Assembly (NCBI GenBank): GCA_963676355.1
Contig: OY781093.1
Coordinates: 1,463,010 to 1,527,009, forward strand
Direction of reading: 5' to 3'
Length of the DNA stretch: 64,000 nt
From: Christensenellaceae bacterium
Lineage (GTDB): Bacteria; Bacillota; Clostridia; Christensenellales; UMGS416
The position numbers and the translations under genes are program-made. The notes below the pieces were generated by a model. It was not told the DNA's origin. It ran no database searches and saw only the letters and a list, made by a program, of their open reading frames with translations. Position 1 is the stretch's first letter, and every line of letters starts with the position of its first letter. Below are positions 25,253 to 61,881 of this stretch, piece by piece.

Positions 25253-25259
25253 TCTAATG

Positions 25260-25616: not shown

Positions 25617-25834
25617 AATACACTCCTATAAATAATTATTTCTTCATTGTTAATAACAAATACCACATATATTATATCATATATTTCAAATTTGATATAT
25701 ATAGAATCATATATATAACTAAAAGTTATTTACAAAATATATATAAACCAAGCAATATATATTCAAACATAAATATTTATTTTTTTTCAGTTTCGAGAAC
25801 TTTTTTTTCTTTTCAGAGCAAGTATTTGACTTTT
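25617..25834 (-). promoter_or_regulatory. pilA promoter/leader region
   Basis: This is an AT-rich 218-bp gap. An extended -10 (TGATATAAT) sits on the minus strand at 25669-25677. Two A8/T8 homopolymer tracts lie at 25780-25787 and 25801-25808. An AGGAG RBS precedes the pilA ATG. Confidence 0.5.
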
Positions 25835-27040: not shown

Positions 27041-27075
27041 TAAATGTCTCCTTCGCAGACTTAGATTGTTTTATT

Positions 27076-28134: not shown

Positions 28135-28157
28135 AATCCTCTTTAAGTTTAAATTTG

Positions 28158-33407: not shown

Positions 33408-33795
33408 TTTAAATTATTTTTAATAGAAATCTATTTTGTAAGAATTTTTTGTCAGACAGATTATAACATAATTATAGATATATATGGTAATCGTTTCTTA
33501 AAAATATCATAAAGAAATTTGAAGTGTCGTTTTCAACTATTTATCGTTTTTAAAATACTGGTATTCACACTTTTTTAAGCGCATGGCAAGCGATTTTGGT
33601 ATTTGGAGATTTGTTAAGAGTATATTGTCTTGTATGTAGATTAAAGCTGGTTTAGTGTGCAAGAATGGCTTGTGACTATAAAATTAATAGTTTCTTTATA
33701 AAAAAGTAAAAAAACATATATAAATAAGCCTCAAAATGCGGTATAATACGGTATTGTTATATGATAATTAAATCAAGGAGAAACTTTACTGACTG

Positions 33796-34785: not shown

Positions 34786-34790
34786 AGAAT

Positions 34791-34822
34791 GATTTTAAAG
34801 GCTGTGTGTACACACAGCCTTT
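34791..34822. terminator. bidirectional terminator between convergent genes
   Basis: The sequence is aaaggctgtgtgtacacacagcctttttta, a perfect stem flanked by A-runs and T-runs. Confidence 0.75.
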
Positions 34823-34827
34823 TTTAT

Positions 34828-37599
34828 TTAGCTTATTTTTTCACCAAAACTTAATTCGCACAGTAAATCAAATATTTCGCTGTCTTTACATATATAATAT
34901 TGTTCGCTTGCATTGTTTGAGCCATACAGTCTGTAAGTTTTTTTGATATAAACTGTTTTTGAATCGACAAACCCTATTATACTGAGACTGCCGACGCCTT
35001 CCTGCGGAGCAAGCTCGATATCCCATGAAATATCAGAGTTTGGCAAAATGGGAATCTGAGGGATTTCTTCCACGCCATACTTTTCAAGCTTTTTGCCCAA
35101 AGACATTGCCCAGAAAATGATGTCATCATCATTCGTTATTTTTGAGCCTTCAAAGCCAAGATCTTTCACATCACTGCTGATTGTTGTTGTAATCGATGCG
35201 ATGCCGCCGGGCATGTCTCCTACTATGGGGGTGATGTATCTGAGTTCCTCGCGGTATTCAGGAAGCTTGGGACTTTTGTCATCGTCTATTATATATTCTG
35301 ACACATCGGTGTTTATTCTAAATGTCTCAATGCCCGACATCCATAGTTCTTCTCCTTCTGCAACGAAGTATCTGGCTTTTTTATTTTGCTCGTATATCAT
35401 CAATATCGCGGTGTTGTTAATAGTGTCAAAGCTGTAGTGAAATTCGCAGGCGCTAATATCGTTTTCGATATTTATTTTAACCATGTATCCTAAAAAGCCT
35501 AATTCTGTGTGCGAATACATGCGGCCTTCGCTTCCTTCTTCAACTTCAGTCCATTCAGCGTTTTTGACAGCTTCAATAAATGCGGTGTTAGCAAGGTTTT
35601 TTGGGTTTTCTTCGGCATACCATAAATTTATCAAGGTCCCCGAATCTGCTTCGCCGCGAATGAATCTGTGAACATTAACGAATCGCGCAATTCCATTTTG
35701 GAAGTTTAAGTTTAAGTATGCACCTTCAAGCGGCAATTCTTTTTTTAAGGGGACAGGGAGTGAAATATTGTAGTCATTGTTGATTTTATCAACTCTGTAT
35801 TTTAGCTGATTATACAGTGAATCATAAACAGAGGTAAAACTGAGCTCTTGGAGCCTTGGGTAATCATTCATGGAAAGTGACTCTTTTTCTTGTACATCTA
35901 TGTCTATAAGCTCCCAAGTTTGTTCGTCATATTTTGCTGTCACGACATAGAGCTTTGCGTATTCAGTTTGTGTGCTTGTGCTGCTGTATGAAGCTGTCAA
36001 TACCGCCGCTGTTATAGGATTGTCAAATTCTTCTGACAGGGGGAACAATGCGGCAATTTGAAGCGAATCGTCATTTGCTTTATTGTCCAAAACATATATT
36101 TGCATATCACGGGCAAGCGCAGAATATGGATTATTGATTGGTTCAAAGGTTTTTGCTATATTCGCTTTAATTGAGGAAAATCTATCTATCGTTTCTTCTG
36201 AATTGGTTCCTAATGCCAAATGACTTTTTGCCAAGGAATTATAATCAGCCATAGCGTCTTGACTAAGTTTATTTTCTACAAAAGATAAATCGTTATTTTC
36301 AAGCATTCCTGCATATTCATCCATATATAGGTTGATTTCGTCTGAAGTTGACGGGAAAATAATTTTCTGGACTTTATATTCGCCATTCGGATTTTTGTCT
36401 AGGACAGCGAAAAATGGCTTGTAGACTGCTTCGTGCTCAAGCGGCGGAACAAAAGTGAATGTGCCTGAATAGCCCCAAAGCATAAATTCATCAGAATTGC
36501 CGCTATTTGCAGGTTTGCTGCCCAATAAATATATCTCAGGTATTACAGGCCAATTTGAGGACAGGACTACATTTTCAAATTCAACAGATAAAAGATGCTG
36601 CTTTATAATATCCTCAGGGTCATTTGTATTAAATGATTGAAGTTGGTATTTATTTAACAGAGCATTAAGCATGTATTGTGCTGTAGTTGATCTATTTGTT
36701 GCATCTGTTTTGTAATTATCATCGTAATATTGCCTTAAATAGTCAATAGAACTTTCCAGACTGTCGCTGAGTATTGCCAGCTCAAAGGAGAGTTTTTTTG
36801 CTGCGCCATGTATTTCGATTTTATCAAAATCCTCATGGATGAAAACAGTATCCATCACAACTTTTATCCTAGACTGTGCATCTAAATCATTCCAATGAAC
36901 AAATCTTGCCGAAAAACCGTTTTTTGCCATGCCGGAAGGGAAAGATACCAGCATTCCCTCTGAGGACTCTACAGCAATAGCTGGTTTATGTGCACCATAT
37001 TTTTCTACGGCAAAAGGACCTAAATCCAGCGATGTGAATCCAAAATCAAAATTGCTATCGTTTATATGCATATCGACACTGACAAATCTGGAATCGGGGG
37101 AGGGAGTAGTTATTATAACAAGATAATAATCGTGGTTTTCTTCTTGTGTAACTTTATCGGTAAGATATCCGTGTTTATGCAGTTCCTCGCTTAGCGAACT
37201 GTCTTCAAGTTTGAGTTTTGCGGTGTATATTCCTGATTCGTCAAACTCATGAGTATATTGACGGTATTTGTTGGTTTTTTCTAGTTGATATACATCTACA
37301 TGCCTAAGATTTGCTCTTTCCAGAGCTTCTTTTTCTTCAGAAGATAAAGATGAACTCTCTTGGGTAGAAACAGCTGATTTTTCTGGAGAAGAAATGGCTG
37401 ATTGTTCTTGGCTGGGCGCTGGTGTAGCGGCGTTTACATCCTGTCGCTTATCATTTACTAAATACTTAAAGGTTATGGTGCCTATAATTAATATAACTGC
37501 TAAAAATAATATAAGCAGTATGATGTTTCTTACTCGAATCTTGTTTTCATCCCGAGTGCTTTTGGAAGATATACCTTCAAAATTCATATCATTTTTCAT
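34828..37599 (-). CDS. large (923 aa) signal-anchored surface protein of unknown function
   Basis: It has a single N-terminal TM helix (IILLILFLAVILIIGTITF) and a Ser/Thr/Pro-rich linker. The ~800-aa extracytoplasmic region has no recognisable motifs. Confidence 0.5.
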   Translation of the reverse strand: MKNDMNFEGISSKSTRDENKIRVRNIILLILFLAVILIIGTITFKYLVNDKRQDVNAATPAPSQEQSAISSPEKSAVSTQESSSLSSEEKEALERANLRHVDVYQLEKTNKYRQYTHEFDESGIYTAKLKLEDSSLSEELHKHGYLTDKVTQEENHDYYLVIITTPSPDSRFVSVDMHINDSNFDFGFTSLDLGPFAVEKYGAHKPAIAVESSEGMLVSFPSGMAKNGFSARFVHWNDLDAQSRIKVVMDTVFIHEDFDKIEIHGAAKKLSFELAILSDSLESSIDYLRQYYDDNYKTDATNRSTTAQYMLNALLNKYQLQSFNTNDPEDIIKQHLLSVEFENVVLSSNWPVIPEIYLLGSKPANSGNSDEFMLWGYSGTFTFVPPLEHEAVYKPFFAVLDKNPNGEYKVQKIIFPSTSDEINLYMDEYAGMLENNDLSFVENKLSQDAMADYNSLAKSHLALGTNSEETIDRFSSIKANIAKTFEPINNPYSALARDMQIYVLDNKANDDSLQIAALFPLSEEFDNPITAAVLTASYSSTSTQTEYAKLYVVTAKYDEQTWELIDIDVQEKESLSMNDYPRLQELSFTSVYDSLYNQLKYRVDKINNDYNISLPVPLKKELPLEGAYLNLNFQNGIARFVNVHRFIRGEADSGTLINLWYAEENPKNLANTAFIEAVKNAEWTEVEEGSEGRMYSHTELGFLGYMVKINIENDISACEFHYSFDTINNTAILMIYEQNKKARYFVAEGEELWMSGIETFRINTDVSEYIIDDDKSPKLPEYREELRYITPIVGDMPGGIASITTTISSDVKDLGFEGSKITNDDDIIFWAMSLGKKLEKYGVEEIPQIPILPNSDISWDIELAPQEGVGSLSIIGFVDSKTVYIKKTYRLYGSNNASEQYYICKDSEIFDLLCELSFGEKIS

Positions 37600-37805
37600 T
37601 GAATCTCCTTTGTGTTCACAAGAATCTCATTTGTTGTATCTACTTATAGTTTTGGATAATTATCTCATGGAAATCATAAAATGACAATTGACATATTTCA
37701 TAATATTTTGAGAAAAGCTAAGTTTATGATAAAATATAAATAGATATAAGATGTTTACTTCTATATGAATATAATATTTCTCCTGAACCATGTTCGACGA
37801 TTATA

Positions 37806-38423
37806 TTGGGGGGGAACAATATGAAAAATGAAGATACATTAGACAAGCATTTTACACATGAACATGAAGCAACTTGCTCTATATGCTCAAGACCTATGAC
37901 TGACCTTATGACATTCATAGTTTATTGGATTCTTCCCTTGTGGAGAGCGGTGGATGAAGATGAAAATGGCTATGCTTACCAATCCAAGAAAGCATACAGT
38001 ATGACTGACATAAGACGCAGGCGCTATCATATTTGCGCAAATTGTTATGGCAAAGCACATAATAAGAAAATGATTTTTATGCTCTTTGGAGTAATGATTG
38101 CGGCGATTACACCTGCATTGTTTTTGATTGAGCAGGTTATAGGCTTTTCTGTATTAATTGGATTTGATGCGAATATTGAAAATTTCTTTTTAGGATTGAT
38201 TATTGGCGCTATGGTAGTTGCTTTTAACTTCCCGGTTAAAAAAGTTATCTTGGATAATCTTGCGCGTGCTCAACTTAAGACTGATTTGGTTAATGGAAAA
38301 TTCCAACATAGCCTATCACAAGCTGAGGCAAATGAAGTAAAATCATGGACGGAGCTCGTTCCACACAATGATCCTACTTTGCATCATCACCATCATCATA
38401 CAGGAAGGCATAAGGAAGCATAA
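37806..38423 (+). CDS. small membrane protein with N-terminal zinc-ribbon (CSIC...CANC) and a native C-terminal His6 tail
   Basis: It has two Cys pairs, two predicted TM helices, and the C-terminus ...TLHHHHHHTGRHKEA. The likely start is the ATG at 37821 (MKNEDTL). Confidence 0.45.
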   Translation: MGGNNMKNEDTLDKHFTHEHEATCSICSRPMTDLMTFIVYWILPLWRAVDEDENGYAYQSKKAYSMTDIRRRRYHICANCYGKAHNKKMIFMLFGVMIAAITPALFLIEQVIGFSVLIGFDANIENFFLGLIIGAMVVAFNFPVKKVILDNLARAQLKTDLVNGKFQHSLSQAEANEVKSWTELVPHNDPTLHHHHHHTGRHKEA

Positions 38424-41143: not shown

Positions 41144-41218
41144 TTGAAAATATTACAAAATGGGTATATATTAGACATATAACAAATCGACTCCCTTCCA
41201 TAGTGTTTTGGAGACGAA

Positions 41219-43112
41219 AATGAATAAAAAAGAGCTAAATAAAGAAAGACTTATTCATATTTTAACAGTTATAACGGGCCTATATATAGCCTATTATATT
41301 TACTGGCGTATTGCATTCACAATAAACACCCAAGCAGTATTTTTTTCAGTTGTTCTTGTAGTAGCAGAAATTCAGGGGGTTATAAATTTCCTGCTTTTTT
41401 CAATGATGACTTGGAATCTTAAAAAGGAAAAAACACCTGAGCCGATTCTTGATGCTAAAGTTGACATATTTATACCGACATATAATGAAGACTTGACTGT
41501 TCTTGAAGCAACAATAACAGGGTCTAACAATGTGAAGCTCACACACACGACATATGTTTTGGATGACGGCAAGCGAAAAGAAGTGGAGCAGCTGGCAAAA
41601 AGCATGGGTTGCGAATATCTTACGCGCGAAGATAACAAGCATGCAAAAGCAGGAAACATCAATGCGGCACTTAAAAAGACTGACGGTGAGTTTATTGTAG
41701 TGCTTGATGCTGACATGGTCCCTCAGCCTGAAATATTAGAGAAAACTCTGGGATATTTTCGTGAAGAAAAGGTTGCGATAGTGCAGCTTCCTCAGGAGTT
41801 TTATAATCTTGATTCAATGCAGCACCAAAAAGATGGCATGAACTGGCATGAACAGCAACTTTTTTATCATGTAATTCAGCCTGGGAAAGACAATATTAAC
41901 GCAGCATTTTGGTGTGGAAGCCCTTCTGTTGTGCGGCGTGCGGCATTGGAGGAAATAGGCGGGGTGGCTACCGACAGCATTACTGAGGATTTTTTAACAT
42001 CCATTAGGCTTAATTCTCAGGGATGGAAGATAAGATACCATGAGGAAGCCTTAGCTTTTGGAATCGCACCACAATCTTTCGATGCATTTTCAGTGCAAAG
42101 GCTGAGGTGGGCTCAGGGCTCAATGAAAATACTTCGCAGCAAAGACAATCCGCTTATTATAAAGGGATTGGGACTAAAGCAAAGATTTTCTCATTTCGCA
42201 GCTATCTTCACCTACTTTGACGCATATCAGAAATTGATTTATCTGCTGACTCCTGCGATACTCCTTTTTACAGGGATTATGCCTATAAAAGTTATAAGCC
42301 CAGAAGATTTCTTCCTGCACTGGCTACCGTATTTTGTGCTCACAATGATTACAAACACTGTTCTTGGCAGAGGATATTTTGCTTATATTGAAGTGGAGAA
42401 GTTTAATACGCTTAAAATGATAACTTTCATAAAGGCATCTTTTTCGCTTGTCTTCGGAAAGAATATGAAGTTTAAGGTAACTCCGAAAGCAATGGAGCAG
42501 TCGGTGAAACAAAAAGATAAAAAAGAGCTGACTTTTCACATTGTGATATTGACTATAATAATAGCTTCAATGACATTTGCCACGGTAAATGCGATATTAA
42601 ATCAAATTGTTAAATACCCTTCGGTTGCAGCAATGGTTATTGCTCTTTTTTGGTCGGTTATAAACGGAGGTATTTTGTATATATCTTTGCATGAAGTGCT
42701 AAAGCGTGCATATTTTAGGCGTGATTATAGATTCCCTCTATCAATAAAGGTGGGAGTTGAAATGGACAATGGCAAAAATGCGATGTGTACTGTAAGCAAT
42801 ATTTCTCGAGGTGGCCTGAGCCTCATCTGTGCAGAAGAAGGAGGCTATGCACCGTTTAACGGGGATGAAATAGTGGTTAAAATGAAGTTTGAAGGCAGCG
42901 ATGTCAATGTTCCTTCTAAAATAGTTTATTCCAAAATGAGCAAAAATAATACAAAAAGCCTTGGTGTAAGGTTTAATGAATTAGACCAAGAAACAAAAAA
43001 GAAACTCTATAAGTTCCTTTATGTGACAGCTCCGCGAATGATATATGAAGAAAATGCAGTAAAATCAAAAAAGAAAAAAAGAGGGTTTAAATTGAGACTG
43101 AAAAGAAGCTAA
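41219..43112 (+). CDS. processive family-2 glycosyltransferase (cellulose-synthase BcsA-like) with C-terminal PilZ c-di-GMP-binding domain
   Basis: The GT2 motifs are present: DDG (VLDDGKRKE), DAD (VLDADMV), TED (ITEDFLT) and QxxRW (QRLRWAQG). Multiple TM helices flank the catalytic domain. The C-terminal PilZ has RxxxR (RRDYR) and NISRGGLSL (D/NxSxGG). The likely ATG at 41219 is behind a GGAG RBS. The ORF-track TTG start is at 41208. Confidence 0.85.
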
Positions 43113-43778: not shown

Positions 43779-44459
43779 ATGAGATATAAGATACTTATAG
43801 TAGAAGATGAAGCGCAGATACGTGAAGTCGTTGGGAAGTACATGGAGCAGGCAGGTTATGATGTCCTGCTTTGTGAAAATGGCATAGAAGCTCTTGCGCT
43901 TTTTTCAAAACACAACCCCCATCTTGTTGTGCTGGATGTCATGATGCCTGGAATAAGTGGGTTTGAAGTGCTTAAGCAGTTGAGACTGACATCAAAAGTG
44001 CCTGTGATAATGCTCACTGCAAAGCAAAAGGAAGATGACCGCATAGAGGGATTTGACTTGGGTGCAGATGATTATGTCCCAAAGCCTTTTTCTCCTAAGG
44101 AGCTGGTAAAAAGAGCGCAAGCTGTATTAAGACGTGCATATTCTACGCCGGAAGATATTATGCTTATCGTTGCCGGAATTTTTAAGTTGGATATAAAAAA
44201 ACATAAACTATATAAAAGAGATGCTGAGATTGAAATTACAAGCAAGGAGTTTTCATTACTTAAGGTGTTTATAGCAAATGAGGGTGCACTTTTGTCCAGA
44301 AACCAATTGATTGAAAAAGCATTTGGATATGCTTATGAAGGGTTTGATAGAAATATAGATACTTATATTAAAAATATACGACAGAAGATAGAAATAGATA
44401 GCAAAAAGCCTACGCACCTTAAAACAAAGTACGGAGCGGGATATATATTCGAGGGATAA
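43779..44459 (+). CDS. OmpR/PhoB-family response regulator
   Basis: It has a receiver domain (the acidic pocket and a conserved Lys) and a C-terminal winged-helix DNA-binding domain. Confidence 0.9.
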   Translation: MRYKILIVEDEAQIREVVGKYMEQAGYDVLLCENGIEALALFSKHNPHLVVLDVMMPGISGFEVLKQLRLTSKVPVIMLTAKQKEDDRIEGFDLGADDYVPKPFSPKELVKRAQAVLRRAYSTPEDIMLIVAGIFKLDIKKHKLYKRDAEIEITSKEFSLLKVFIANEGALLSRNQLIEKAFGYAYEGFDRNIDTYIKNIRQKIEIDSKKPTHLKTKYGAGYIFEG

Positions 44460-44462
44460 GAT

Positions 44463-45806
44463 ATGACAGTCAGAAAGCAGATTACTATTATAATAGGTTC
44501 AATATTATTAATCGCGGTGTTGATTTACTCGGTAGTATCCGCAGCTTTTGTGAATAAATATTTCAGCGGATATGTCGAGTCGGAATATAATGATACAGTC
44601 GAAAGAATAAAAGAGCAGTCAGAAAAGATATTAGATGGCACGATACAAACCAAAGATGAAGCCTATGAAGTTTTGTCTATTTTTAGCGATGCTTTGATTG
44701 GAAGCATCAGCATTTTGGATTCACAGGATAATTTGATTGTGAATATGGATGCAACGCCGCATATGATGAGAGGGCAAATGATGGGTGGCGCTATGAACTC
44801 TGTTTCTGAAACTGATTATTTTGATATACAAATAAACGGAGAAAAAATTGGAACTCTAGTTATTGGACGTACCAGCGCTATACGAGATTCTCAACAAATC
44901 ATACAATTTAAAAGATCGCTTAGAAGAGGCGCGCTATTTTCAGGACTTGTAGCGTTTGTTATATCGGTTGTTATTATAATATTTGCAGGTGAGAAAATGA
45001 CAAAAGATTTAAGAAGAACAGCTTCTGCCGCGTCAATTGCAGACAATGGTTCGCTAAGTGGAATGAAGCTTTCCGGTGTAGCAGAAATAAGATCTATTCA
45101 GCAGAGTCTTAGGGATATATCATCCAAGCTGGGGCTTCAAAAGCGTGCACGCAGAGAAAAAGTGGATCAGCTTTCCCATGAGGTGCGAACGCCGCTAACC
45201 ATACTTAAAACGAATGTGGAAGGAGTCAGAGATAAAGTCATTGAGATGGACGATAAGCGAATTGAAAGCTGTTTGATTGAAATTGATAATTTAACAAGTA
45301 TATTAAGCACGATATCTGATGTTGTTGAATATGACGATAAAGAATTAAAGCCAGTTATTAGAGAGTTTGATGTTGGGAACCTGCTGGAAGCTATTGTTCA
45401 GGGATTTAAATTGCAGTTTTACAAAAAATCCGTGTCACTTTCCACAGATGGAAAAAAACACATGATTGTGAGTACGGATAAATCACTTTTATCACAGGCT
45501 ATATACAATCTTATTTCCAACGCATATAAATTTACACCAAAAGGCGGAAAAGTTAGCGTAATTCTTGACGAAAGCGAAGAAGGCATCAGTGTAAGTGTGT
45601 GTGACAGTGGAATTGGTGTGCCCGATGATGAAAAAGACAAAATATTTGATGCGTATCAAAGAGGTTCATCGCAAAAAAACACATCGGGCGATGGATTGGG
45701 ACTTTATATAGCAAAAAATAATATTCAGTCACTTGGCGGAACTATAACTGTCAACGACAATAAGTTGGGAGGATCTTGTTTTGCAATCAGCCTTCCTGCT
45801 GAATAA
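44463..45806 (+). CDS. sensor histidine kinase
   Basis: It has two TM helices around an extracytoplasmic loop, an H-box (SHEVRTPLT) and a HATPase_c domain (the N, G1 and G2 boxes: NAYKFT, DSGIGV, GDGLGL). Confidence 0.9.
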   Translation: MTVRKQITIIIGSILLIAVLIYSVVSAAFVNKYFSGYVESEYNDTVERIKEQSEKILDGTIQTKDEAYEVLSIFSDALIGSISILDSQDNLIVNMDATPHMMRGQMMGGAMNSVSETDYFDIQINGEKIGTLVIGRTSAIRDSQQIIQFKRSLRRGALFSGLVAFVISVVIIIFAGEKMTKDLRRTASAASIADNGSLSGMKLSGVAEIRSIQQSLRDISSKLGLQKRARREKVDQLSHEVRTPLTILKTNVEGVRDKVIEMDDKRIESCLIEIDNLTSILSTISDVVEYDDKELKPVIREFDVGNLLEAIVQGFKLQFYKKSVSLSTDGKKHMIVSTDKSLLSQAIYNLISNAYKFTPKGGKVSVILDESEEGISVSVCDSGIGVPDDEKDKIFDAYQRGSSQKNTSGDGLGLYIAKNNIQSLGGTITVNDNKLGGSCFAISLPAE

Positions 45807-53759: not shown

Positions 53760-55169
53760 ATGAATAAGACGAACAGACAAAAAACTCGCTATATAAACCT
53801 TGCTTTGGGATTTGTTATTTTCATAGCATTTTTATTATTGCTTCCAAAAGATATTTTCTTATTTGAGGCAAGAGTCGCACTTGCGACACTCATATTAATG
53901 ATTTATTGGTGGATCACAAGGCCTGTGCACATAGCGGTTACGGCACTTTTGCCTATTATAGCTAATAGCTTGTTTGCAGTAGTCCCTATGGCTAATGTTC
54001 TTTCAAATTACGCTTCACAGATTGTGGTATTACTTTTGGGCGCAAACATTCTTACGCTTACATGGAAGACCACAGGGCTTGACAGACGCATTGCGCTCAA
54101 GTCACTTGGTGTGATTGGCACATCGATTAAAAAACAATTGATTGTGTGGTTTTTGCTGTCGGTTTTGCTGTCGGCTGTTCTCCCGAATGCGGTGGTGGCT
54201 GCGGCACTGTGTCCTATAGCATACGCTATGGTGGCCTATCTGGGAGATGATGGCGCAAAGCATAAAAAAATCCTTAACATGATCCTTCTTATGATAGTGT
54301 GGGGAGCGGGATTAGGAGGCTTTGGAACGCCATTGGGTGGAGCAATGAACCTTGTTGCAATTACGCACATCGAAAGCTTTACAGGGCAGGAATTCATGTT
54401 TATAAAGTGGACCTTGTTGATGCTTCCATATCTTGCGCTTTTATCACTTGCGATTGTAATATACATCATTTTTTCCAAGCAAGAAATAAAAACTTTGCCT
54501 GGCTCACATGATTATTTCATTAACAGCTATAAAGAGATGGGCAGGACAACAAAGTCACAAAAGATTGCTTTTATTCTGTTTTTAATACCGGTGGTGCTTT
54601 CTTTTGCGCGTCCTTTTTACTCAGCATATTTGCCGGAGTTTAAGCCTTTTTTCGCATTCTTACTGTTTGGATTTATAGCGCTTTTGGTAAACGGAGAAAA
54701 AGGCGAGAGGCTTATAACTTTTACTTATGCTCAAAAGCATATAAACTGGGGGCTTATGATTCTCTTTTCAGGAGGGCTTGCAATAGGCAATGTGCTGATT
54801 GCAACGGGAGTGTTGGAGAGCATATCAAAGCTTATAGCGACATCAGACATTGTAGGCGTATTGCCAATAATTCTTGTGATAGTTGCTTTTTCGATGTTTT
54901 TATCCAATACGTCAAGCAACACCGCGGCGGTTGCTGTCGCTGTGCCGCTTGTGATCGGTATAGTGTCGGTTATAAGCGATGTACCGCTTAAATATGTATA
55001 CTTAACGGCAGCCGCGTGCAATTGCGCATTCTTGCTGCCAACATCTATAAGGGCTATCCCGGTGGGATATGGACTGGACACAAAGTTTATGCTAAAGAAA
55101 GGAATGGCGGGGGTAATAATTACCTTCCTAGTTATAGCCATATATGGCTATATATCTGTTATAATATAG
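53760..55169 (+). CDS. DASS/SLC13-family anion:Na+ symporter
   Basis: It has about 12 TM helices and hairpins. The duplicated SNT signature reads FLSNTSSNTAAVAVAV, with the first-half counterpart GGFGTPLGGAMNLVAI. Confidence 0.75.
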   Translation: MNKTNRQKTRYINLALGFVIFIAFLLLLPKDIFLFEARVALATLILMIYWWITRPVHIAVTALLPIIANSLFAVVPMANVLSNYASQIVVLLLGANILTLTWKTTGLDRRIALKSLGVIGTSIKKQLIVWFLLSVLLSAVLPNAVVAAALCPIAYAMVAYLGDDGAKHKKILNMILLMIVWGAGLGGFGTPLGGAMNLVAITHIESFTGQEFMFIKWTLLMLPYLALLSLAIVIYIIFSKQEIKTLPGSHDYFINSYKEMGRTTKSQKIAFILFLIPVVLSFARPFYSAYLPEFKPFFAFLLFGFIALLVNGEKGERLITFTYAQKHINWGLMILFSGGLAIGNVLIATGVLESISKLIATSDIVGVLPIILVIVAFSMFLSNTSSNTAAVAVAVPLVIGIVSVISDVPLKYVYLTAAACNCAFLLPTSIRAIPVGYGLDTKFMLKKGMAGVIITFLVIAIYGYISVII

Positions 55170-55171: not shown

Positions 55172-55402
55172 ATGGAAAAAGATATTAAGATAATTGATTG
55201 CTTTGGGGATATATGCCCAATCCCAATCTTAAAGATAGAGCAGGAGCTTTCTCACATGAAAAGTGGGGATTCATTTATGATTGTGGTGGACCACAGTTGC
55301 ACGATTGAGGCAATCAGAAACAAATACTACGATAAAATACATGATGTGAAAATTGAGGAGGTTATGAACGGTGTGTGGGAGGTTGTTTTTACTATAAAGT
55401 AA
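55172..55402 (+). CDS. TusA-like sulfurtransferase (SirA/YedF/YeeD family)
   Basis: The 77-aa product starts MEKDIKIIDCFGDICPIPIL, with the CPxP active-site motif. It starts 2 nt after the DASS stop. The ORF-track extension back to 55016 overlaps the permease and is rejected. Confidence 0.8.
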   Translation: MEKDIKIIDCFGDICPIPILKIEQELSHMKSGDSFMIVVDHSCTIEAIRNKYYDKIHDVKIEEVMNGVWEVVFTIK

Positions 55403-55409: not shown

Positions 55410-56306
55410 TCAGCAAAAACTTGCTTCGCCGTTTTCCTTAAACCATTCTAAAAATGTTTCCACATGTTCAGTGTGGAGCTTTTTGTATAACAAAAATATG
55501 TCTAAATTTATATCAAGGCCTGAGATTTTAACTTCCTTGAACTGCTTTTTGTATAGTTCCTCTTTGACTGAGATGTAGGGGAGAAACGCCATGCCGTAGC
55601 CACTGCTTATCATCATTTTGGCGCCGACAATTCCTTCAACGCGAAGGTTGCAGTTGAGATTGTTTCTGGGAATTCCCAAGTTTTCAAGCTTCTTAAAAAT
55701 GATTTCATTGATGTCTGTTTTGCCTGTGAGTGTGATAAGGCATATGTCTGCAAGCCCTTGAAGGGATATTGAATCTGGATGATCTGAGTTATTAGGGGCA
55801 GCCAGTATTATTTTGTTAAAACCCGCTCTTTGACACAAAACGCCATCATATCCGTTTGGAGTTTCCATATAGGAAAACCCGACATCACATATATTGTTTG
55901 CAACATTTTGAAGTATAACGTAGGAGGGATTGCTTGAAAGCTCATATTTATGCAATTGATATTTATTATTGGCTTTAATCATGGTGCAGGGAAGAGCATA
56001 GTCTGCAAGTGAAGAGGGAGCTTCTATCTTAATTATAATGTTTTTCTTTGATTCGCTTTCAATCTCTTCCATCATATGGTCATATGTTCGCAGGATGTTG
56101 TCTGCAAATTTATATACAATTTTTCCGTCAGGAGTAAGCTGTACGCCTTTATTTGAGCGAATAAGCAGCTTCTTTTTAAAATCTGTTTCAAGTCTTTGAA
56201 TTTGTTGGGACAGAGCGGATTGTGAAAGGTGCACACTTTTTGCGACAGAGCTAATATTGCCTGCCTTGGCTATCATATAAAAATATTTTAAAGATTCTAT
56301 ATTCAA
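55410..56306 (-). CDS. LysR-family transcriptional regulator
   Basis: It has the HTH (SVAKSVHLSQSALSQQIQRLE) and a substrate-binding domain. The likely TTG start at 56306 gives MNIESLKYF. The ORF-track start is at 56381. It is divergent from the yeeE operon. Confidence 0.8.
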   Translation of the reverse strand: MNIESLKYFYMIAKAGNISSVAKSVHLSQSALSQQIQRLETDFKKKLLIRSNKGVQLTPDGKIVYKFADNILRTYDHMMEEIESESKKNIIIKIEAPSSLADYALPCTMIKANNKYQLHKYELSSNPSYVILQNVANNICDVGFSYMETPNGYDGVLCQRAGFNKIILAAPNNSDHPDSISLQGLADICLITLTGKTDINEIIFKKLENLGIPRNNLNCNLRVEGIVGAKMMISSGYGMAFLPYISVKEELYKKQFKEVKISGLDINLDIFLLYKKLHTEHVETFLEWFKENGEASFC

Positions 56307-56439
56307 GATACACCCAAATTCATAGTCTCTGTTATGTTCGATATTAATGGATATTATAGCACCAAAGCCTGCTATTAACAAATCTAATACAGTATAAGAA
56401 AACAGATTGATAGATTTTTAACAAAGTATGATAAAATAT

Positions 56440-56470
56440 TGACGAACAAGTGTTAAATTATTAACAAACA
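56440..56470 (+). promoter_or_regulatory. promoter with a LysR-type inverted repeat upstream of the yeeE-tusA operon
   Basis: A TTGACG -35-like hexamer is followed by the palindrome TGTTAA-atta-TTAACA (56450-56465), which fits the T-N11-A LysR box. A GAGGTG RBS precedes the ATG at 56488. Confidence 0.5.
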
Positions 56471-56487: not shown

Positions 56488-57195
56488 ATGTCAGAAAGCA
56501 CAATCAGAACTTCTTCCAGAGCTTCAAGCAGAAAACGCAAAAAAAGAATGAATCAGATACCCATAGCATTGGGACTTATTGTGATTATTGTTGTAATAGG
56601 TGTTCTATTGACTCTGAGAGGCGAGAACCTTGGACTATATTGGATGACGGGTTTGGCTTTTGGTTTTATCCTGCAGCGTGCACGTTTTTGCTTCACTGCA
56701 TCAATGCGCGATCCATACCTTACAGGTTCAACAACTGTAACGCGTGCAGTGCTTATAGCGTTTGCTATAACTTCAATCGCATTTACTGCAATTAAATACG
56801 GAGCGTTTTTAAAAGGGATGCCAATTCCAGGGCAGAGCTATGTAGCTCCGATATCAATTGCAACAGGCATAGGAGCATTTATGTTTGGTGTGGGAATGGT
56901 AATCGCCGGCGGATGTGCTTCGGGAACTTTGATGAGAATCGGAGAAGGCTTCTGGATGCAGCTTCTATCGCTTTTCTTCTTTGTGGTGGGCTCGCTTTGG
57001 GGAGCGCATGACTATGGATGGTGGTATCGCAACTTTATAGTAAGCGGCAAGAGAGTGTTCCTTCCGGATGTGTTTACAAAATTGTTTAACTCAACATCAT
57101 TTGGCTGGTTTGGCGGCCTTATGTGTAACCTTCTTATAATAGCAGTGATTTATGTGCTGGCGCATAAATGGGAAAATCGAAAAAAAGAGGATTAA
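56488..57195 (+). CDS. YeeE/YedE-family sulfur-compound transporter, N-terminal half-protein
   Basis: It has the conserved Cys motifs ILQRARFCFTAS and IAGGCASGT in re-entrant helices, and a basic N-terminal tail. Confidence 0.8.
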   Translation: MSESTIRTSSRASSRKRKKRMNQIPIALGLIVIIVVIGVLLTLRGENLGLYWMTGLAFGFILQRARFCFTASMRDPYLTGSTTVTRAVLIAFAITSIAFTAIKYGAFLKGMPIPGQSYVAPISIATGIGAFMFGVGMVIAGGCASGTLMRIGEGFWMQLLSLFFFVVGSLWGAHDYGWWYRNFIVSGKRVFLPDVFTKLFNSTSFGWFGGLMCNLLIIAVIYVLAHKWENRKKED

Positions 57196-57236
57196 AATTA
57201 TCCTTTTTAAAAATAACTTAATCGGAGGAAATTAAA

Positions 57237-57464
57237 ATGAGTAAAGAAGTAGTATTGGATTGCTTGGGCGAGGCTTGCCCTGTGCCACTTATCAAAGCAG
57301 AAAAAGAATTGGAAAAACTTGAATCAGGCGATGTTCTTATCGTTCAGATCGACCACAGCTGTGCAATGAAAAATGTTCCGGAATGGGCACGCAAAAAGGG
57401 ACATGAAGTGGAGCTTGAAGAAGTGGACGACGGCGAATGGGAATGCATCATAGAAAAAGCATAA
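57237..57464 (+). CDS. TusA-like sulfurtransferase (YeeD/TsuB-like)
   Basis: The 75-aa product starts LDCLGEACPVPLIKAEKEL, with the CPxP motif. It is inserted between the two YeeE halves. Confidence 0.85.
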   Translation: MSKEVVLDCLGEACPVPLIKAEKELEKLESGDVLIVQIDHSCAMKNVPEWARKKGHEVELEEVDDGEWECIIEKA

Positions 57465-57490
57465 CTAAAAGGTAATAAGACTTATTTGAG

Positions 57491-58048
57491 GTGAGAAACT
57501 TGAAGAAATTTTTTGACAAAATAAAACAGAATGAGTTCTACAAGATATGGTTTAAAAAAGCATTACCATATGTTGCAGGAGCAGTGCTTTTGTCAGTGTT
57601 CCAGATTGTGACTTTTACGACAACAGGCAATCCCTGGGGTGTTTCGGGTATATTTGCAAACTGGGGCGCATGGCTTTTTGAAGCTGTTGGCGGCTCGGTT
57701 GACAAATGGTTTTACTTTTCTTCACCCGGCGCGCAGGCAACTCTTGATGCAGGCTTTTTAAGCCATGCACCAACGTGGAGAAACATAGGGATAATATTTG
57801 GTGCGCTTTTTGCTGCACTTATGGCTTCAGGTTTCAAATTAAAGAAAATTAAGTCATTTAAGCAAGTTGCTGCTGCAACATTGGGCGGCCTTCTCATGGG
57901 ATATGGAGCAAGAATTGCATTTGGATGCAATATTGGCGCTCTGTTTTCAGGAATTGCTTCCTTGTCGCTTTCAGGCTGGGTATTTGCCCTGTTCATGTTT
58001 GGCGGCGCTGTGGTCGGCAGCAAACTTTTAGTTAAATACTTTATGTAA
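57491..58048 (+). CDS. YeeE/YedE-family transporter, C-terminal half-protein
   Basis: It has the third conserved Cys motif GARIAFGCNIGALFSG and 4-5 TM segments. Confidence 0.8.
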   Translation: MRNLKKFFDKIKQNEFYKIWFKKALPYVAGAVLLSVFQIVTFTTTGNPWGVSGIFANWGAWLFEAVGGSVDKWFYFSSPGAQATLDAGFLSHAPTWRNIGIIFGALFAALMASGFKLKKIKSFKQVAAATLGGLLMGYGARIAFGCNIGALFSGIASLSLSGWVFALFMFGGAVVGSKLLVKYFM

Positions 58049-58059: not shown

Positions 58060-59292
58060 ATGGCTAGAGAAAAAAAAGTAGAACAATATGATGTCGTTAT
58101 TGTCGGCGGAGGAGCTTCAGGGCTTACAGCCGGAATATACTGCGGAAGAGCTAAACTTAAAACACTTATAGTTGAGCAGGCTTTGGTGGGCGGCATTGCA
58201 ACTAATACAAATGACATTGAAAATTATCCGGGATTTCCGGAAGGAATATCAGGAATTGACCTTATGAACCTTTTTAAAGAGCAGGCAAAAAGATTCGGAG
58301 TGAAATTCAAGCTCACAAATGTGAAAACTGTGGATTTTTCAGGCGATATAAAAATCCTTGAAACATTCAGAAACAGATATGAAGCAAAATCTGTGATAAT
58401 CGCAAATGGATCAAAGCCAAGGGTTTTGGGCATTGACAGCGAAGAACAGTTCATTGGAAAAGGAATCGCTTTTTGCGCCACATGCGACGCAGCTGCAAAT
58501 ACGGGCAAAGAAGTTGTTGTTATAGGCTCAGGCGATGCGGCAATAGAAGAAGGAATGTTCCTTACTAAGTTTGCCAGCAAAGTTACAGTTTCCGTGCTTC
58601 ATGATGAAGGCGTTATGGACTGCAACGAGATTGCAAAAGCGGCAGCTCTTGCAAACCCTAAGATGGAATTTAAGTGGAATACAGTGGTTGATGAATATAT
58701 CGGCGGCGAAGAGCTTGAAGCTGTAAACCTAAAAAATCTTAAAACAGGCGAAATAGAGCGTATAGACTGCGCCACATGCTTCTTATTTATAGGATTTGTG
58801 CCGAACACAAATATATACAAGGACATAGTTAAAATGACTGACCGCGGATATGTTATAACTGATGAGGAAATGCGCACTAATATTCCGGGCGTGTTTGCAG
58901 CAGGCGATGTTCGCGACAGATTCCTAAGACAGGTTGCAACTTGTGTAGGTGACGCGGCTACAGCAGGTGTTATGGCTGAAAAGTATATCGCAGAAAGCGA
59001 AATATTTGAACATCAGATCATGATGGGCGACGGCATTGCATATGTATATGACGCGGTAAACAAAGACCAAAGAGAGTTTTTGTCTGTCATTGAAGAGATA
59101 GAAGCACTTTATGAAAACCATGGTTGTCATAAGGTGGACACATATAAATCAAAAGGCTTGGCAGCGCGCCTAGGATGTGAAGACTGCCCGGCTGTTGTCA
59201 TCATAAAAGACGGCAAAATATATGAGACGTTGTCTGAAGATGAGCTCAGCAAAGAAGAAATCATTGCTGCCATAAAAGCTTCAAAGGAGTAA
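58060..59292 (+). CDS. thioredoxin-disulfide-reductase-like flavoprotein fused to a C-terminal thioredoxin-fold (monothiol) domain
   Basis: It has the FAD site GGGASGLTAG, the CATC redox disulfide and the NAD(P) site VIGSGDAA. A ~95-aa C-terminal extension has Trx-like beta-alpha topology (HGCHKVD...CPAVVIIKDGKIYE) but no CxxC. Confidence 0.75.
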   Translation: MAREKKVEQYDVVIVGGGASGLTAGIYCGRAKLKTLIVEQALVGGIATNTNDIENYPGFPEGISGIDLMNLFKEQAKRFGVKFKLTNVKTVDFSGDIKILETFRNRYEAKSVIIANGSKPRVLGIDSEEQFIGKGIAFCATCDAAANTGKEVVVIGSGDAAIEEGMFLTKFASKVTVSVLHDEGVMDCNEIAKAAALANPKMEFKWNTVVDEYIGGEELEAVNLKNLKTGEIERIDCATCFLFIGFVPNTNIYKDIVKMTDRGYVITDEEMRTNIPGVFAAGDVRDRFLRQVATCVGDAATAGVMAEKYIAESEIFEHQIMMGDGIAYVYDAVNKDQREFLSVIEEIEALYENHGCHKVDTYKSKGLAARLGCEDCPAVVIIKDGKIYETLSEDELSKEEIIAAIKASKE

Positions 59293-59296: not shown

Positions 59297-60190
59297 GTGA
59301 AAAAGAGAATGCTAATAATCCTTATCGCATTAATAATTGTTTCGTTTTCAGCTTGCGCAAATTTTGACTTTGCACAAACGGGTGATTACATCGTTACACC
59401 CAAACAAGCTGAGGCACTCATTAATGACGGTGTGACTGTTGTTGATGTGCGAAGTGCCGAAGACTATGGCTTAGGCCATGTCGCAGGGGCTGTAAACATA
59501 CCAATGAGCACACTTACAGTTAGTGAGCCATATGCAAACATGCTTCCTGATGCGGCTCAAGTGGAAGAAGTTATGAGTGCGGCAGGCATATCGCAAACTG
59601 ATGAACTTTTGGTTTATGATGATGCAAAAAACATGCAAGCAGCCCGCGTGCAGTGGACGCTCAACATGTATTCAAACTTCAATGTGCGTGTGATAAGCGG
59701 TGGGGTTAAAGCACTCAAAGAGCAGGGAGTTGATTTCGATTCTAACAGCGTAGAGCTTGAAACAGTTGAATATAGCGCTGGTGATTATCAGAAGTCATTA
59801 ATTGTTAATCTTGACTATTTGAAATCCGTCATTAACATGCCGGATGAAAACACTGTGATTATAGACACCCGCAGCGATGATGAATATTATGCTGGGACGA
59901 TTCCCAGCGCATGCCACATAGAATATGTTTGGAATATGTATGCAAACGGTGAGTACAAAACACCGCGCGACATACAAAGCACATATCTGGCAGAGGGCAT
60001 AAAGCCCGAAATGAAAATTATCCTGTTTTGCAAAACATCAGTAAGAGCTGCCCAAACATATGCAGCACTTAAAGATGCAGGATATGAAGATGTAAGGATA
60101 TATGACGGTGCTTGGTTGGAATATGAGGATGTTGAAAATCCTCAGCCACCGTCGGAAAATATCACACCCACGAGGCAAGACGCTTCGTAA
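59297..60190 (+). CDS. lipoprotein thiosulfate/3-mercaptopyruvate sulfurtransferase-type tandem rhodanese
   Basis: It has a lipobox (VSFSAC). The N-terminal domain is an inactive rhodanese and the C-terminal domain carries the catalytic loop CKTSVRA. The GTG start is behind an AGGAG RBS and overlaps the trxR-like stop. Confidence 0.8.
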   Translation: MKKRMLIILIALIIVSFSACANFDFAQTGDYIVTPKQAEALINDGVTVVDVRSAEDYGLGHVAGAVNIPMSTLTVSEPYANMLPDAAQVEEVMSAAGISQTDELLVYDDAKNMQAARVQWTLNMYSNFNVRVISGGVKALKEQGVDFDSNSVELETVEYSAGDYQKSLIVNLDYLKSVINMPDENTVIIDTRSDDEYYAGTIPSACHIEYVWNMYANGEYKTPRDIQSTYLAEGIKPEMKIILFCKTSVRAAQTYAALKDAGYEDVRIYDGAWLEYEDVENPQPPSENITPTRQDAS

Positions 60191-60205: not shown

Positions 60206-61786
60206 ATGAAAAAATTATTAGTAATCCTTATGGCTGCAATCATGGTTTTCGCCGTGACAGCATGCTCAGGAGGAAACGCACTTGAAAGCGCAGCCAATGA
60301 CTATTTTGCGCAATATCCAGGCAGTCGCATAATAACTTGGGACGACCTTTTCGCTAAAATTGACGCAGGAGATGAACCTTTCATCCTAAGCATTCGTCAA
60401 AGCGACGTTTACAATGAAGGTCATATCGTTGGTGCATATCTTGCATCTTGGGGAACGGATTTGGCAGAAAAAGTTTCAATGCTTCCTAAAGACGAACCTG
60501 TTTATGTATATTGCTATTCAGGACAGACAGCAGGACAGACAGTTGCACTTATGAATATCCTAGGAATCGAAGCTTATTCAGTAAAATCAGGCTATAACTT
60601 GGGCGCCTCAAAAACAGAAGGCTTTGAAGCTTATGTTGAAACAGAAGCAAATGAGCTTCCTGATGCAGGCGCAAAATTTGATAAAGCAGTTTTGGAATTT
60701 GCACAAGAATATTTCAACACTGTAGCTGATAATTCTAACAACATCATGGCAGCAAGTGCCGCCGCTCCATTGATTGAAGCTGGTGACCTTACTGTTATGG
60801 ATATCCGCAAAGCAGACGACTACAATGCAGGCCACATCGAAGGCGCAGTAAACGTACCTTTCGGCGAAGGCATGCAGGAAAAATTTGCAGACTTTGAAGG
60901 CAAAAAAATCATCGTTGCTTGCTATTCAGGACAAACAGCAGGACAGACAGTTGGCGTGCTTCGTGCACTTGGCTATGACGCTATATCACTTAAAAGCGGC
61001 ATGGGCGGCTGGACAAGCTATGTGAAAACTGCTGCCGCAGATGCATATTTTGCACCTGAGTTTGCAAACCCAATGATTTCATGGGAAGCACTTTTTGAGA
61101 AAATGGACGCAGGCGAAGAGCTTAACATAGTTTCTATCCGTCAGCAGGACGTATATGACGAAGGTCACATCAAAGGCGCAGTTCTTGCTTCTTGGGGTGC
61201 AGACCTCGCTGAAAAAGTTTCAATGCTTCCTACAGACGAGCCTGTTTATGTATATTGCTATTCAGGACAGACAGCAGGACAGGCAACAGCACTTATGCGC
61301 ATGCTTGGAATTGAAGCATACTCTGTTAAGTCAGGATACAATGTAGGCGCTACAGCAGTTGAAGGCTATGAAGCTTATACTGAAACAGCAGCAAATGAAA
61401 TAGCTGATGCAGGCGCAAGCTTTGATGCAGTTCTTTTAAAAGAAGTTGAATCATATTTCACAGCAGTAACTGACAATGCAAACTTCAAAATCGGCTGGGA
61501 TGACGCTCAGGCAGCAGTTGATGCCGGAGAAGCAACAGTTATTGATATTCGTAAAGCAGATGACTTTGCAGCAGGACATATCGTAAACGCTATAAACATA
61601 CCTTTCGGCGAAAGCATGGACTTTAGCGAATTGCCAGAAGGCAAATTAATCGTAGCTTGCTATACAGGACAGACAGCAGGACAGACAACAGCAGTTCTTC
61701 GTATGCTTGGTCATGACGCAGTATCTCTTCACTTTGGCATGACTGCCGGTTGGATTAAAGAAGGATATCCGGTAGTAACTGACTAG
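60206..61786 (+). CDS. lipoprotein with four rhodanese domains, each with a catalytic Cys loop (CYSGQTAGQ / CYTGQTAGQ)
   Basis: It has a lipobox (AVTAC|SGG). The four repeats each have the VY(V/A)CYSGQTAGQT loop. Domain pairs 1-2 and 3-4 are near-identical. Confidence 0.8.
   Translation: MKKLLVILMAAIMVFAVTACSGGNALESAANDYFAQYPGSRIITWDDLFAKIDAGDEPFILSIRQSDVYNEGHIVGAYLASWGTDLAEKVSMLPKDEPVYVYCYSGQTAGQTVALMNILGIEAYSVKSGYNLGASKTEGFEAYVETEANELPDAGAKFDKAVLEFAQEYFNTVADNSNNIMAASAAAPLIEAGDLTVMDIRKADDYNAGHIEGAVNVPFGEGMQEKFADFEGKKIIVACYSGQTAGQTVGVLRALGYDAISLKSGMGGWTSYVKTAAADAYFAPEFANPMISWEALFEKMDAGEELNIVSIRQQDVYDEGHIKGAVLASWGADLAEKVSMLPTDEPVYVYCYSGQTAGQATALMRMLGIEAYSVKSGYNVGATAVEGYEAYTETAANEIADAGASFDAVLLKEVESYFTAVTDNANFKIGWDDAQAAVDAGEATVIDIRKADDFAAGHIVNAINIPFGESMDFSELPEGKLIVACYTGQTAGQTTAVLRMLGHDAVSLHFGMTAGWIKEGYPVVTD
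60380..61760 (+). repeat. intragenic tandem duplication (~744-bp period) inside the tetra-rhodanese gene
   Basis: For example, 60470-60545 (aaagtttcaatgcttcc...cctgtttatgtatattgctattcaggacagacagcaggacag) recurs at 61214-61289 with few substitutions. The ggacagacagcaggacagac core occurs four times. Confidence 0.75.
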
Positions 61787-61844: not shown

Positions 61845-61881
61845 GACCCCTTCGGCATATGACCGTCGGGGTCTTTTGTTT
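61845..61881 (+). terminator. rho-independent terminator after the rhodanese operon
   Basis: The sequence is gacccc-ttcggcatatgaccgtc-ggggtc followed by ttttgttt. Confidence 0.65.

Follow-up and report, generated by a model that had tools for sequence, protein, structure and literature searches.

The halfA, TusA and halfB genes

We analysed a 64,000-nucleotide stretch of the genome of a Christensenellaceae bacterium (contig OY781093.1, positions 1,463,010 to 1,527,009; hereafter the window), in which a membrane transporter of the YeeE/YedE type is encoded by two genes, with the gene of a TusA-type sulfur carrier between them. Three open reading frames (ORFs) follow each other on the forward strand: halfA (56488-57195, 235 amino acids), a membrane subunit with the motifs FCFT and GGCASG; a YeeD-like TusA with a CPVP motif (57237-57464, 75 amino acids); and halfB (57491-58048, 185 amino acids), a membrane subunit with the motif AFGCNIGA, which includes GCNIG. 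halfA and halfB are separated by a gap of 295 nt, which the TusA ORF occupies. An original prediction, made from the DNA letters, had described two YeeE/YedE-type halves as separate ORFs at 56488-58048 with a YeeD-like TusA gene in the gap, and the ORFs, motifs and Pfam matches bear out this description.

A Shine-Dalgarno sequence of its own was found upstream of each of the three genes. The listed GTG start of halfB (57491) falls within a GAGGTG ribosome-binding site, so the TTG at 57500, 6 nt past GAGGTG, is more likely the true start, and halfB would have 182 amino acids, three residues fewer. Orthologues have lengths of mostly 223-239 amino acids for halfA, 174-189 for halfB and 72-76 for TusA, which the ORFs of the window match. 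All three genes are intact and none is truncated.

Both membrane subunits belong to the YeeE/YedE family Sulf_transp (Pfam PF04143, cut-off 27 bits) and cover complementary parts of its profile: halfA matched positions 1-154 (E 1.5e-28, 100.7 bits) and halfB matched positions 163-310 (E 4.5e-34, 118.9 bits). In the alignment to YeeE of Spirochaeta thermophila (StYeeE), halfA covered residues 7-129, with C68 on C22 and C143 on C91, and halfB covered residues 217-319, with C146 on C293. C68 belongs to FCFT, C143 to GGCASG and C146 to AFGCNIGA. These three cysteines were invariant in 75 sequences, and 64 positions of halfA and 55 positions of halfB were conserved to 97% or more. The cores of the two subunits show a weak similarity to each other (hhalign, E 0.0015, with only 26 aligned columns surrounding the Cys motif), which is consistent with an ancient duplication.

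The original prediction had taken YeeE as the reference, and both halves do align to the N- and C-terminal half of YeeE structures; the refuting outcome it had named, halves that fail to align to the YeeE repeats, did not occur. The match over the whole length, extra helices included, is of the YedE/FdhT type, in which the order is B-A. With the NCBIfam models of TsuA/YeeE (NF041049 and NF052577), halfA scored 59.5 (cut-off 645) and 73.3 (cut-off 400) in the N-terminal part, and halfB scored 29.1 and 55.9 against the same cut-offs in the C-terminal part; a query of half length is unable to reach such full-length cut-offs, but the matches were also limited to the cores. Scores were higher with the YedE/FdhT model (NF033796, cut-off 350), namely 99.4 bits for halfA at model positions 180-383 and 97.1 bits for halfB at positions 10-159. 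The match to seleno_YedE (TIGR04112) had 27.8 bits against a cut-off of 200. For direct comparison E. coli YedE and TsuA were taken from the MG1655 record. halfB aligned to residues 12-164 and halfA to residues 181-387 of YedE, near end to end, and with TsuA only 117 and 82 residues of the halves aligned.

The TusA ORF matched Pfam PF01206 with E 1.1e-24 and 86.4 bits (cut-off 28.6), and its C14, in the CPVP motif, was invariant in 80 of 80 sequences. It also matched YeeD in 8K1R and 8J4C, structures of YeeE-YeeD fusions (E ~1e-10), and TM0983 (E 5.5e-13). The best NCBIfam model was TsuB/YeeD (NF041048), with 49.5 bits against a cut-off of 147.5. A second cysteine, C42 in a DHSC motif, was invariant in the same 80 sequences; it is located two positions off the second Cys of E. 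coli TsuB, and might pair with C14 in a resolving disulfide. In 16 loci of relatives the space between halfA and halfB holds two TusA genes in tandem (L007, L013, L014, L021, L023, L027, L043, L045, L050, L059, L061, L066, L069, L070, L078 and L080).

Hydropathy and charge predict ten helices in total, six in halfA and four in halfB. Eight Arg/Lys lie within residues 7-20 at the N-terminus of halfA; next come an extra helix (TM0, ~24-42), a four-helix A core and a C-terminal helix (TMc, ~207-225). halfB has a Lys-rich N-terminus and then a four-helix B core. According to the positive-inside rule, all four termini of the two proteins are predicted to be cytoplasmic. TM0 would then give the A core an orientation opposite to that of the B core, which would bring the separately inserted subunits into antiparallel packing. 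C68 and C143 are expected on the cytoplasmic side, like C22 and C91 of YeeE (PMC7449682), and C146 on the outer side.

A single-sequence AlphaFold2 model of the B+A concatenation was uninformative (mean predicted local distance difference test, pLDDT, 46). The halfA and halfB proteins of the window were also modelled as one concatenated chain, with an alignment of 45 natural A-B fusions and 41 halfA homologues, and this chain reached pLDDT 92.7 and a predicted template modelling score (pTM) of 0.91, with low confidence in residues 1-20 and at the artificial junction only. When this model was searched with Foldseek against the PDB, only YeeE entries (6LEO, 8J4C, 8K1R, 6LEP) were returned at E<=0.001. 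The match to 6LEO had E 5e-11 and a TM-score of 0.76 normalised to the target, and the first matches other than YeeE had E ~0.04. So halfA and halfB jointly fit a complete YeeE-type hourglass unit of two inverted halves, and the model and the Foldseek matches strongly indicate a heteromeric assembly of halfA and halfB, short of proof, since the chain was covalent and the signal between the halves came from fused relatives.

Relatives of halfA are numerous. There were 2157 homologues at E<=1e-5, and among those listed all 120 of 120 were half-size proteins of 222-291 amino acids; at least 573 species had a halfA relative in a scan of one genome per species. The nearest relatives are from metagenome-assembled genomes (MAGs) of Christensenellales and other Clostridia. 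We took the best 80 loci, mapped nine proteins of the window onto them and extracted their ORFs. Both halves were complete in 74 of these loci, and in 71 of the 74, from different species, the order was halfA-TusA-halfB with one or two TusA genes. A thioredoxin-reductase-like (TrxR-like) gene came directly after halfB in 68 of the 74. In the other three complete loci (L008, L028 and L041), halfA and halfB are adjacent, 17-50 nt apart, without an inner TusA gene. Two of them, from Clostridium, carry a second, divergent halfA/halfB pair on the opposite strand right after the first pair (L008 7360-8649 and L028 7290-8579), with 34-35% and 46-47% identity to the halves of the window. The hosts among the Clostridia are Christensenellales, Peptostreptococcales, Enterocloster, Hungatella, Fusibacter, Dethiosulfatibacter and Vallitalea; beyond the Clostridia there are Spirochaetia, one Halanaerobiales MAG and one Anaerolineales MAG.

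More distant relatives keep the same triplet: A220-TusA75-B171 in P0127 (44% identical), A207-TusA76-B163 in P0165 (36%), and A219-TusA75 followed by the contig end in P0204 (33%). Because the triplet persists down to 33-36% identity, the A-TusA-B arrangement is old. It means that the split order is conserved among relatives, as the original prediction had suggested should be checked, and that its terms of an inserted TusA gene and a gene fission, which imply a recent local event, are overstated. The relative with 44% identity (L083) has a different putative redox partner: an 845-amino-acid fusion protein (1323-3860; Fer4_20, Pyr_redox_2 and CCG/HdrB-like) precedes A-TusA-B, and no TrxR-like gene follows.

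Split and fused forms were compared with the 150 best cluster representatives at 50% identity from an exhaustive halfA search, which were classified by hidden Markov models of both halves. They comprised 89 halfA-only proteins (some surely fragments), 51 A-B fusions, nine B-A fusions and one A-B-TusA fusion. The A-B fusions have ~370-430 amino acids and retain TM0. The statement that YeeE/YedE proteins are normally one polypeptide is therefore too strong, since half-size proteins are the majority of the nearest relatives and two-gene forms are known as PmpAB/YedE1E2 and archaeal YedE (PMC11582611, PMC10812762, PMC5322559).

The genes around the fusions resemble those of the window. P0140, a B-A fusion and the top fused scorer for both halves, is found in an operon of TusA (63% identical), the fused B-A gene and a TrxR-like gene (56% identical). 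This is the operon of the window with the A part behind B rather than before TusA. In P0151, another B-A fusion, TusA is immediately upstream. P0142 is an A-B fusion with a TusA2-like gene and a divergent LysR gene upstream, as in the window, and without the inner TusA. There is thus a series of states, namely A and B split around TusA, A and B split and adjacent, A-B fused, and B-A fused behind TusA. In a neighbour-joining tree of the A domains, split and fused forms were interleaved, and the window was placed within a mostly split clade in which two B-A fusions are nested. This tree has long branches and no bootstrap, is effectively unrooted, and may count contig-end fragments as A-only. It hints at fusion from a split ancestor and leaves the polarity undrawn. 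The heterodimeric part of the original prediction is strongly indicated by the AlphaFold2 model and the Foldseek matches, and the choice between a split and a fused ancestor is not settled by such a rough tree.

Neighbouring genes and regulation

The gene directly after halfB (58060-59292, forward strand) encodes a TrxR-like flavoprotein of 410 amino acids with a CATC redox centre. With the equivalog model TIGR01292 (TRX_reduct) it scored 321.6 bits, just under the cut-off of 343.45, and its residues 8-320 matched 2Q7V with E 1e-90. By these matches it appears to be a genuine low-Mr thioredoxin-reductase homologue. C139 and C142 of CATC, together with C188 and C240, were invariant in 69 sequences. 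The C-terminal ~90-96 amino acids (59002-59289) form an extra domain foreign to the TIGR01292 family; it matched Thioredoxin below threshold (E 0.0012) and lacks any conserved Cys.

Two rhodanese genes follow on the same strand. The first (59297-60190) encodes a two-domain rhodanese (Pfam Rhodanese x2) with a lipoprotein signal (…VSFSAC) and a CKTSVR active-site loop in domain 2; it was found downstream in ~30 of the 80 loci. The second (60206-61786) encodes a four-domain rhodanese (Pfam Rhodanese x4) with a lipoprotein signal (…AVTAC) and a CY(S/T)GQT loop in each domain. On the basis of the lipobox alone (…SAC and …TAC), both rhodaneses are probably tethered outside the membrane. The intergenic gaps from halfA to the four-domain rhodanese are 4-41 nt, and a consensus scan found no strong terminator-like site between these genes. 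The same kind of scan showed a terminator-like hairpin with a T-run at 61850-61871 (forward strand), the probable end of the operon. Hits of a promoter scan were no more numerous than in shuffled sequence, and an Rfam scan of the window gave no riboswitch and no other RNA family.

Upstream of halfA, on the reverse strand, there is a divergent gene for a LysR-type regulator (55410-56381; Pfam HTH_1 and LysR_substrate). Translation probably begins near 56309, since the alignments to the family models set in only at residue 26-29. The best NCBIfam model was a selenium-associated LysR, with 146.7 bits against a cut-off of 250. A LysR gene is divergently upstream of halfA in ~52 of the 80 loci. The intergenic region between LysR and halfA contains a palindrome, TGTTAA-N4-TTAACA (56451-56466), and a direct repeat, TGATAGATTTTTAACAAA / TGTTAAATTATTAACAAA (window 56408-56468). 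Of 52 equivalent intergenic regions, 39 contain the TGTTAA hexamer, and L040, L070 and L025 have palindromes of a similar kind. As the background is AT-rich, the palindrome is only suggestive as a candidate LysR box.

Further upstream, on the forward strand, a DASS/SLC13-type anion symporter of 469 amino acids is encoded (53760-55169; Pfam CitMHS and Na_sulph_symp). It scored 159.5 bits with the NCBIfam dass model, under the cut-off of 198.6, and it occurred at the equivalent position in seven of the 80 loci. We take it as a putative upstream accessory gene of the module. A second TusA-family gene, TusA2 (55172-55402, forward strand; 76 amino acids; Pfam TusA, E 1.9e-12), starts 3 nt past the DASS gene and carries CPIP and DHSC motifs, the CPxP and DHSC motifs also seen in TusA of the operon. 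The pairing of a TusA with a DASS carrier is unusual. In most Firmicute loci, those without DASS included, LysR has a TusA2-like gene as its neighbour, and L091 shows the same. Because the TusA2-LysR pairing is kept where DASS is missing, TusA2 might signal sulfur status to the LysR regulator.

In the related loci, genes of the sulfonate type, encoding an NMT1-type binding protein and an ABC transporter, recur in 28 cases, and a coenzyme A (CoA)-disulfide-reductase/rhodanese fusion adjoins one fused relative; both fit a sulfur role. At 2-6 kb upstream of halfA in the 80 loci there were also genes for ATP-grasp ligase-like (39), GT2 glycosyltransferase (32), DegT aminotransferase (23) and PMT/ArnT-like (24) proteins. 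We rejected these as parts of the system; they are absent from the window and probably reflect lineage synteny.

Function of the system and alternatives

We consider that halfA and halfB are probably two subunits of one YeeE/YedE-type sulfur channel, with TusA as acceptor and with the reductase, the rhodaneses and the LysR regulator as its associates. The homology to YeeE/YedE, the conservation of the cysteines, the gene order and the confident single-fold model are the established basis of this reading. Inferred beyond this basis are that the two halves form a heterodimer in vivo, which way the transport runs and what is carried, and how the reductase and the rhodaneses take part. Most likely the system would take up thiosulfate or sulfane sulfur and pass it along a cysteine relay to TusA, the substrate here being an assignment by inference.

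In known systems, YeeE/YedE channels act with TusA-type partners (PMC11073785, PMC13293266), and YeeE needs three Cys (PMC7449682). YeeD is essential; it takes thiosulfate on its cysteine and decomposes it, by an electron route which the authors call unknown (PMC11073785). For the system of the window we propose that the lipoprotein rhodaneses would collect sulfane sulfur from thiosulfate or polysulfide and pass it to the outer mouth of the channel. The A/B channel would relay the sulfur from C146 on the outer side to C143 and C68 on the cytoplasmic side. TusA, the counterpart of YeeD/TsuB, would dock on the face of halfA and accept the sulfur on C14, and the TrxR-like flavoprotein would probably regenerate TusA with NAD(P)H, perhaps via a C14-C42 disulfide. 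Sulfide would be released, for assimilation or as an electron sink, and the divergent LysR would control the operon. The more complete form of this proposal is a self-contained import line from outer rhodaneses through the two-subunit channel and TusA to a reductase that is the missing electron donor for thiosulfate or persulfide decomposition of the YeeD type, perhaps by way of the C14/C42 pair of TusA, and we offer it tentatively, as a possible but rather doubtful extension. On this reading the family would also preserve several split and fused arrangements of an inverted-repeat transporter in living genomes, and, if so, YeeE and YedE would owe their opposite orders to different fusions of the same ancestral gene pair.

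Several points weigh against the sulfur-channel explanation. Both halves are far under the TsuA/YeeE equivalog cut-offs, and TusA is far below that of TsuB/YeeD; therefore the substrate is not transferable by orthology. The top-scoring NCBIfam models for the halves and the regulator are selenium-associated (YedE/FdhT and LysR). The AlphaFold2 model is a covalent concatenation whose inter-half signal came from fused homologues, so it speaks for compatibility and not for assembly. The rhodaneses are missing from more than half of the loci, and so are not an obligatory part.

The first alternative is that the system handles selenium and not sulfur, with a split YedE/FdhT-type transporter, a YedF-like carrier, a TrxR-like protein reducing selenite or selenotrisulfide, and selenium-binding rhodaneses. 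We regard it as unlikely, though as the main rival. Thioredoxin reductases and rhodaneses are able to handle selenium. Both halves score highest with the NCBIfam model selen_YedE_FdhT (99.4 and 97.1 bits), the best model of the regulator is a selenium-associated LysR (146.7 bits), TusA also matches YedF, the architecture over the whole length is YedE-like, and YedE co-occurs with SelD (PMC5322559). However, none of these scores comes near its curated cut-off (350, 250 and 110), the TIGR04112 score is 27.8 of 200, and the best model of TusA is TsuB/YeeD. A search of the 64-kb window and of the 6-kb flanks of the operon in 80 species gave no SelD homologue, and no selA, selB or yedF-DsrE domain was found nearby. 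The rest of the window has ordinary chromosomal content (purL, aspartate kinase, type IV pilus, sugar-utilisation genes, cellulose-synthase-like). Moreover, deletion of a true YedE in Methanococcus maripaludis gave no clear selenium phenotype (PMC11097638).

The second alternative, to which we assign a slightly smaller chance, is an outward channel or safety valve, by which surplus sulfane sulfur or sulfite would be exported or detoxified, TusA being donor rather than acceptor. The fold is that of a passive cysteine-relay channel without an energy-coupling module, and a dedicated reductase with rhodaneses would suit detoxification equally. Related two-gene forms are found in persulfide-detoxification operons, for example yedE1-yedE2-pdo2 (cited in PMC10812762). 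On the other side, the characterised members import, as was reported for YeeE (PMC7449682, PMC11073785) and SoxT1A (PMC11582611), and YedE1E2 imports and does not export (PMC10812762). The rhodaneses with lipoprotein signals, which are probably external, are better explained as collectors of substrate.

It is very improbable that halfA and halfB are unpaired and that each forms a homo-oligomeric channel. Some small antiparallel transporters are homodimers, and the cores of halfA and halfB are weakly homologous (hhalign, 26 columns, E 0.0015). But the fixed N-in topology predicted by the positive-inside rule would make a homodimer parallel, so that the inverted arrangement of YeeE would be impossible. 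In addition, the halves co-occur in all 74 complete loci, they are found naturally fused in either order, the combined halfA+halfB model is confident, and YedE1 or YedE2 alone is inactive (PMC10812762).

The weakest alternative, whose frameshift form the original prediction had itself raised, is an artefact or recent decay, that is, a frameshifted or interrupted single gene with non-functional halves; nothing more speaks for it than that the best-known members (YeeE, YedE) are single-chain, and we give it practically no chance, as it is ruled out by the intact ORFs with ribosome-binding sites, the full length of the halves against orthologues, the complete and conserved TusA gene with its own ribosome-binding site that fills the gap, the layout in 71 of 74 species, the 64 halfA and 55 halfB positions conserved at 97% or more, and half-size homologues in thousands (2157 at E<=1e-5, with 120 of the 120 listed at 222-291 amino acids).

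Comparison with known systems and other genes of the window

Two-gene YeeE/YedE transporters are already known (PMC10812762, PMC11582611, PMC5322559), and the two-subunit sulfur channel proposed here should be seen beside them. The same fold is shared with YeeE/TsuA, which together with YeeD/TsuB is known from E. coli and Spirochaeta thermophila (6LEO, 8J4C, 8K1R). YeeE/TsuA has three essential cysteines at positions equivalent to C68, C143 and C146 of the window, its TusA-family partner is encoded alongside as in the window, and its domain order A-B is the gene order of the window. However, YeeE is a single chain of ~330-350 amino acids with nine helices and no TM0, whereas the window has two chains with 6+4 helices and 420 amino acids. 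The partner gene of YeeE comes after the transporter gene, while in the window tusA is between the halves and a dedicated TrxR-like gene is downstream.

YedE/FdhT with YedF (E. coli b1929-b1930; Campylobacter FdhTU) has ten helices, as has the pair of the window. The halves align to it over the whole length, with TM0 and the C-terminal helix included, and in both systems a TusA-like partner gene is adjacent. The closest fused relatives of the window pair, P0140 and P0151, have the YedE order (B-A); both keep TusA, and P0140 also keeps the TrxR-like neighbour. On the other hand, YedE is a single chain with the order B-A, whereas the gene order of the window is A, TusA, B. YedE/FdhT is selenium-associated, while the window system has no selD linkage and is under the curated YedE cut-offs. 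YedF (TIGR03527) has a DsrE-like second domain (PMC5322559), and the partner in the window is a plain TusA of 75 amino acids without it.

PmpA/PmpB(/PmpC) of Serratia, equivalent to YedE1/YedE2 of Cupriavidus and Sinorhizobium, shares the two-gene principle with the window. A PmpA/PmpB heterodimer was proposed (PMC11582611), and YedE1 or YedE2 by itself shows no activity, whereas the two together do, both being required for import of zero-valent sulfur (PMC10812762). These works support the principle that two halves form one unit. The PmpA/PmpB subunits are different in that they have ~130 amino acids, four helices and one Cys each, without the FCFT Cys and without extra helices (PMC11582611, PMC10812762). 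In contrast, the subunits of the window have 235 and 185 amino acids and three Cys, and halfA carries two conserved Cys and two extra helices. The TusA-like pmpC is reportedly positioned after the pmpAB pair (Gristwood et al. 2011 are said to have described this). The YedE1/YedE2 genes are mostly adjacent (PMC10812762), while tusA of the window is inside the pair. PmpAB/YedE1E2 is mostly from Proteobacteria, and the family of the window is mostly from Clostridia and Spirochaetia.

The archaeal split YedE (Methanococcus, MMJJ_13000-13010) also consists of two neighbouring genes, with 4-5 helices each (PMC5322559), and so is two-gene as in the window. According to its description, the genes are directly neighbouring and belong to selenium-using archaea, and no intervening tusA or TrxR-like gene is mentioned. 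The YTD cluster (yedE-like, tusA, dsrEFH type II) of Desulfobacterota and cable bacteria couples a YeeE/YedE-like channel to TusA as the entry of a cytoplasmic sulfur relay (PMC13293266), as here. In that cluster the acceptor is DsrEFH/DsrC (dissimilatory) and the transporter is a single gene, whereas in the window a TrxR-like flavoprotein is downstream.

To these known forms the locus of the window adds a three-cysteine form with large subunits and 6+4 helices, a tusA gene kept inside the pair across deep divergence, a dedicated TrxR-like partner, and both fusion orders within one operon type. In the literature searched, which left most subscription journals outside, there was no description of an A-TusA-B operon with a TrxR-like gene, or of the opposite domain orders that YedE and YeeE have. 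The gene set is common, conserved and already auto-annotated, and it is not singular to this genome.

The results correct the view of YeeE/YedE as normally single-chain, as the two-gene form is the commonest around the window protein. This form is widespread in anaerobic Clostridia and Spirochaetia, gut genera such as Enterocloster and Hungatella included, and likewise Dethiosulfatibacter and Fusibacter, which the literature knows for thiosulfate reduction. The TrxR-like neighbour offers a specific candidate for the source of electrons left open by the YeeE-YeeD work (PMC11073785). The split, A-B and B-A forms share operon contexts and offer a natural series for the study of how inverted-repeat proteins arise from heterodimers, which also bears on how an extra helix sets the orientation of a subunit. 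The findings extend the current understanding and overturn none of it.

The window contains other gene groups. A type IV pilus cluster is located on the reverse strand at 16495-29846, with PilM, PilN, a prepilin peptidase, T2SSF, two T2SSE ATPases and N_methyl pilins. Two large ORFs in this cluster (18939-20867 and 20928-23009) had no Pfam match at E<=1e-5, and the same was found for four consecutive ORFs at 32715-38423 (230, 329, 923 and 205 amino acids). The gene at 41208-43112 encodes a GT2 protein that is cellulose-synthase-like and carries a PilZ domain at its C-terminus (BcsA-like); it adjoins a two-component system at 43779-45806.

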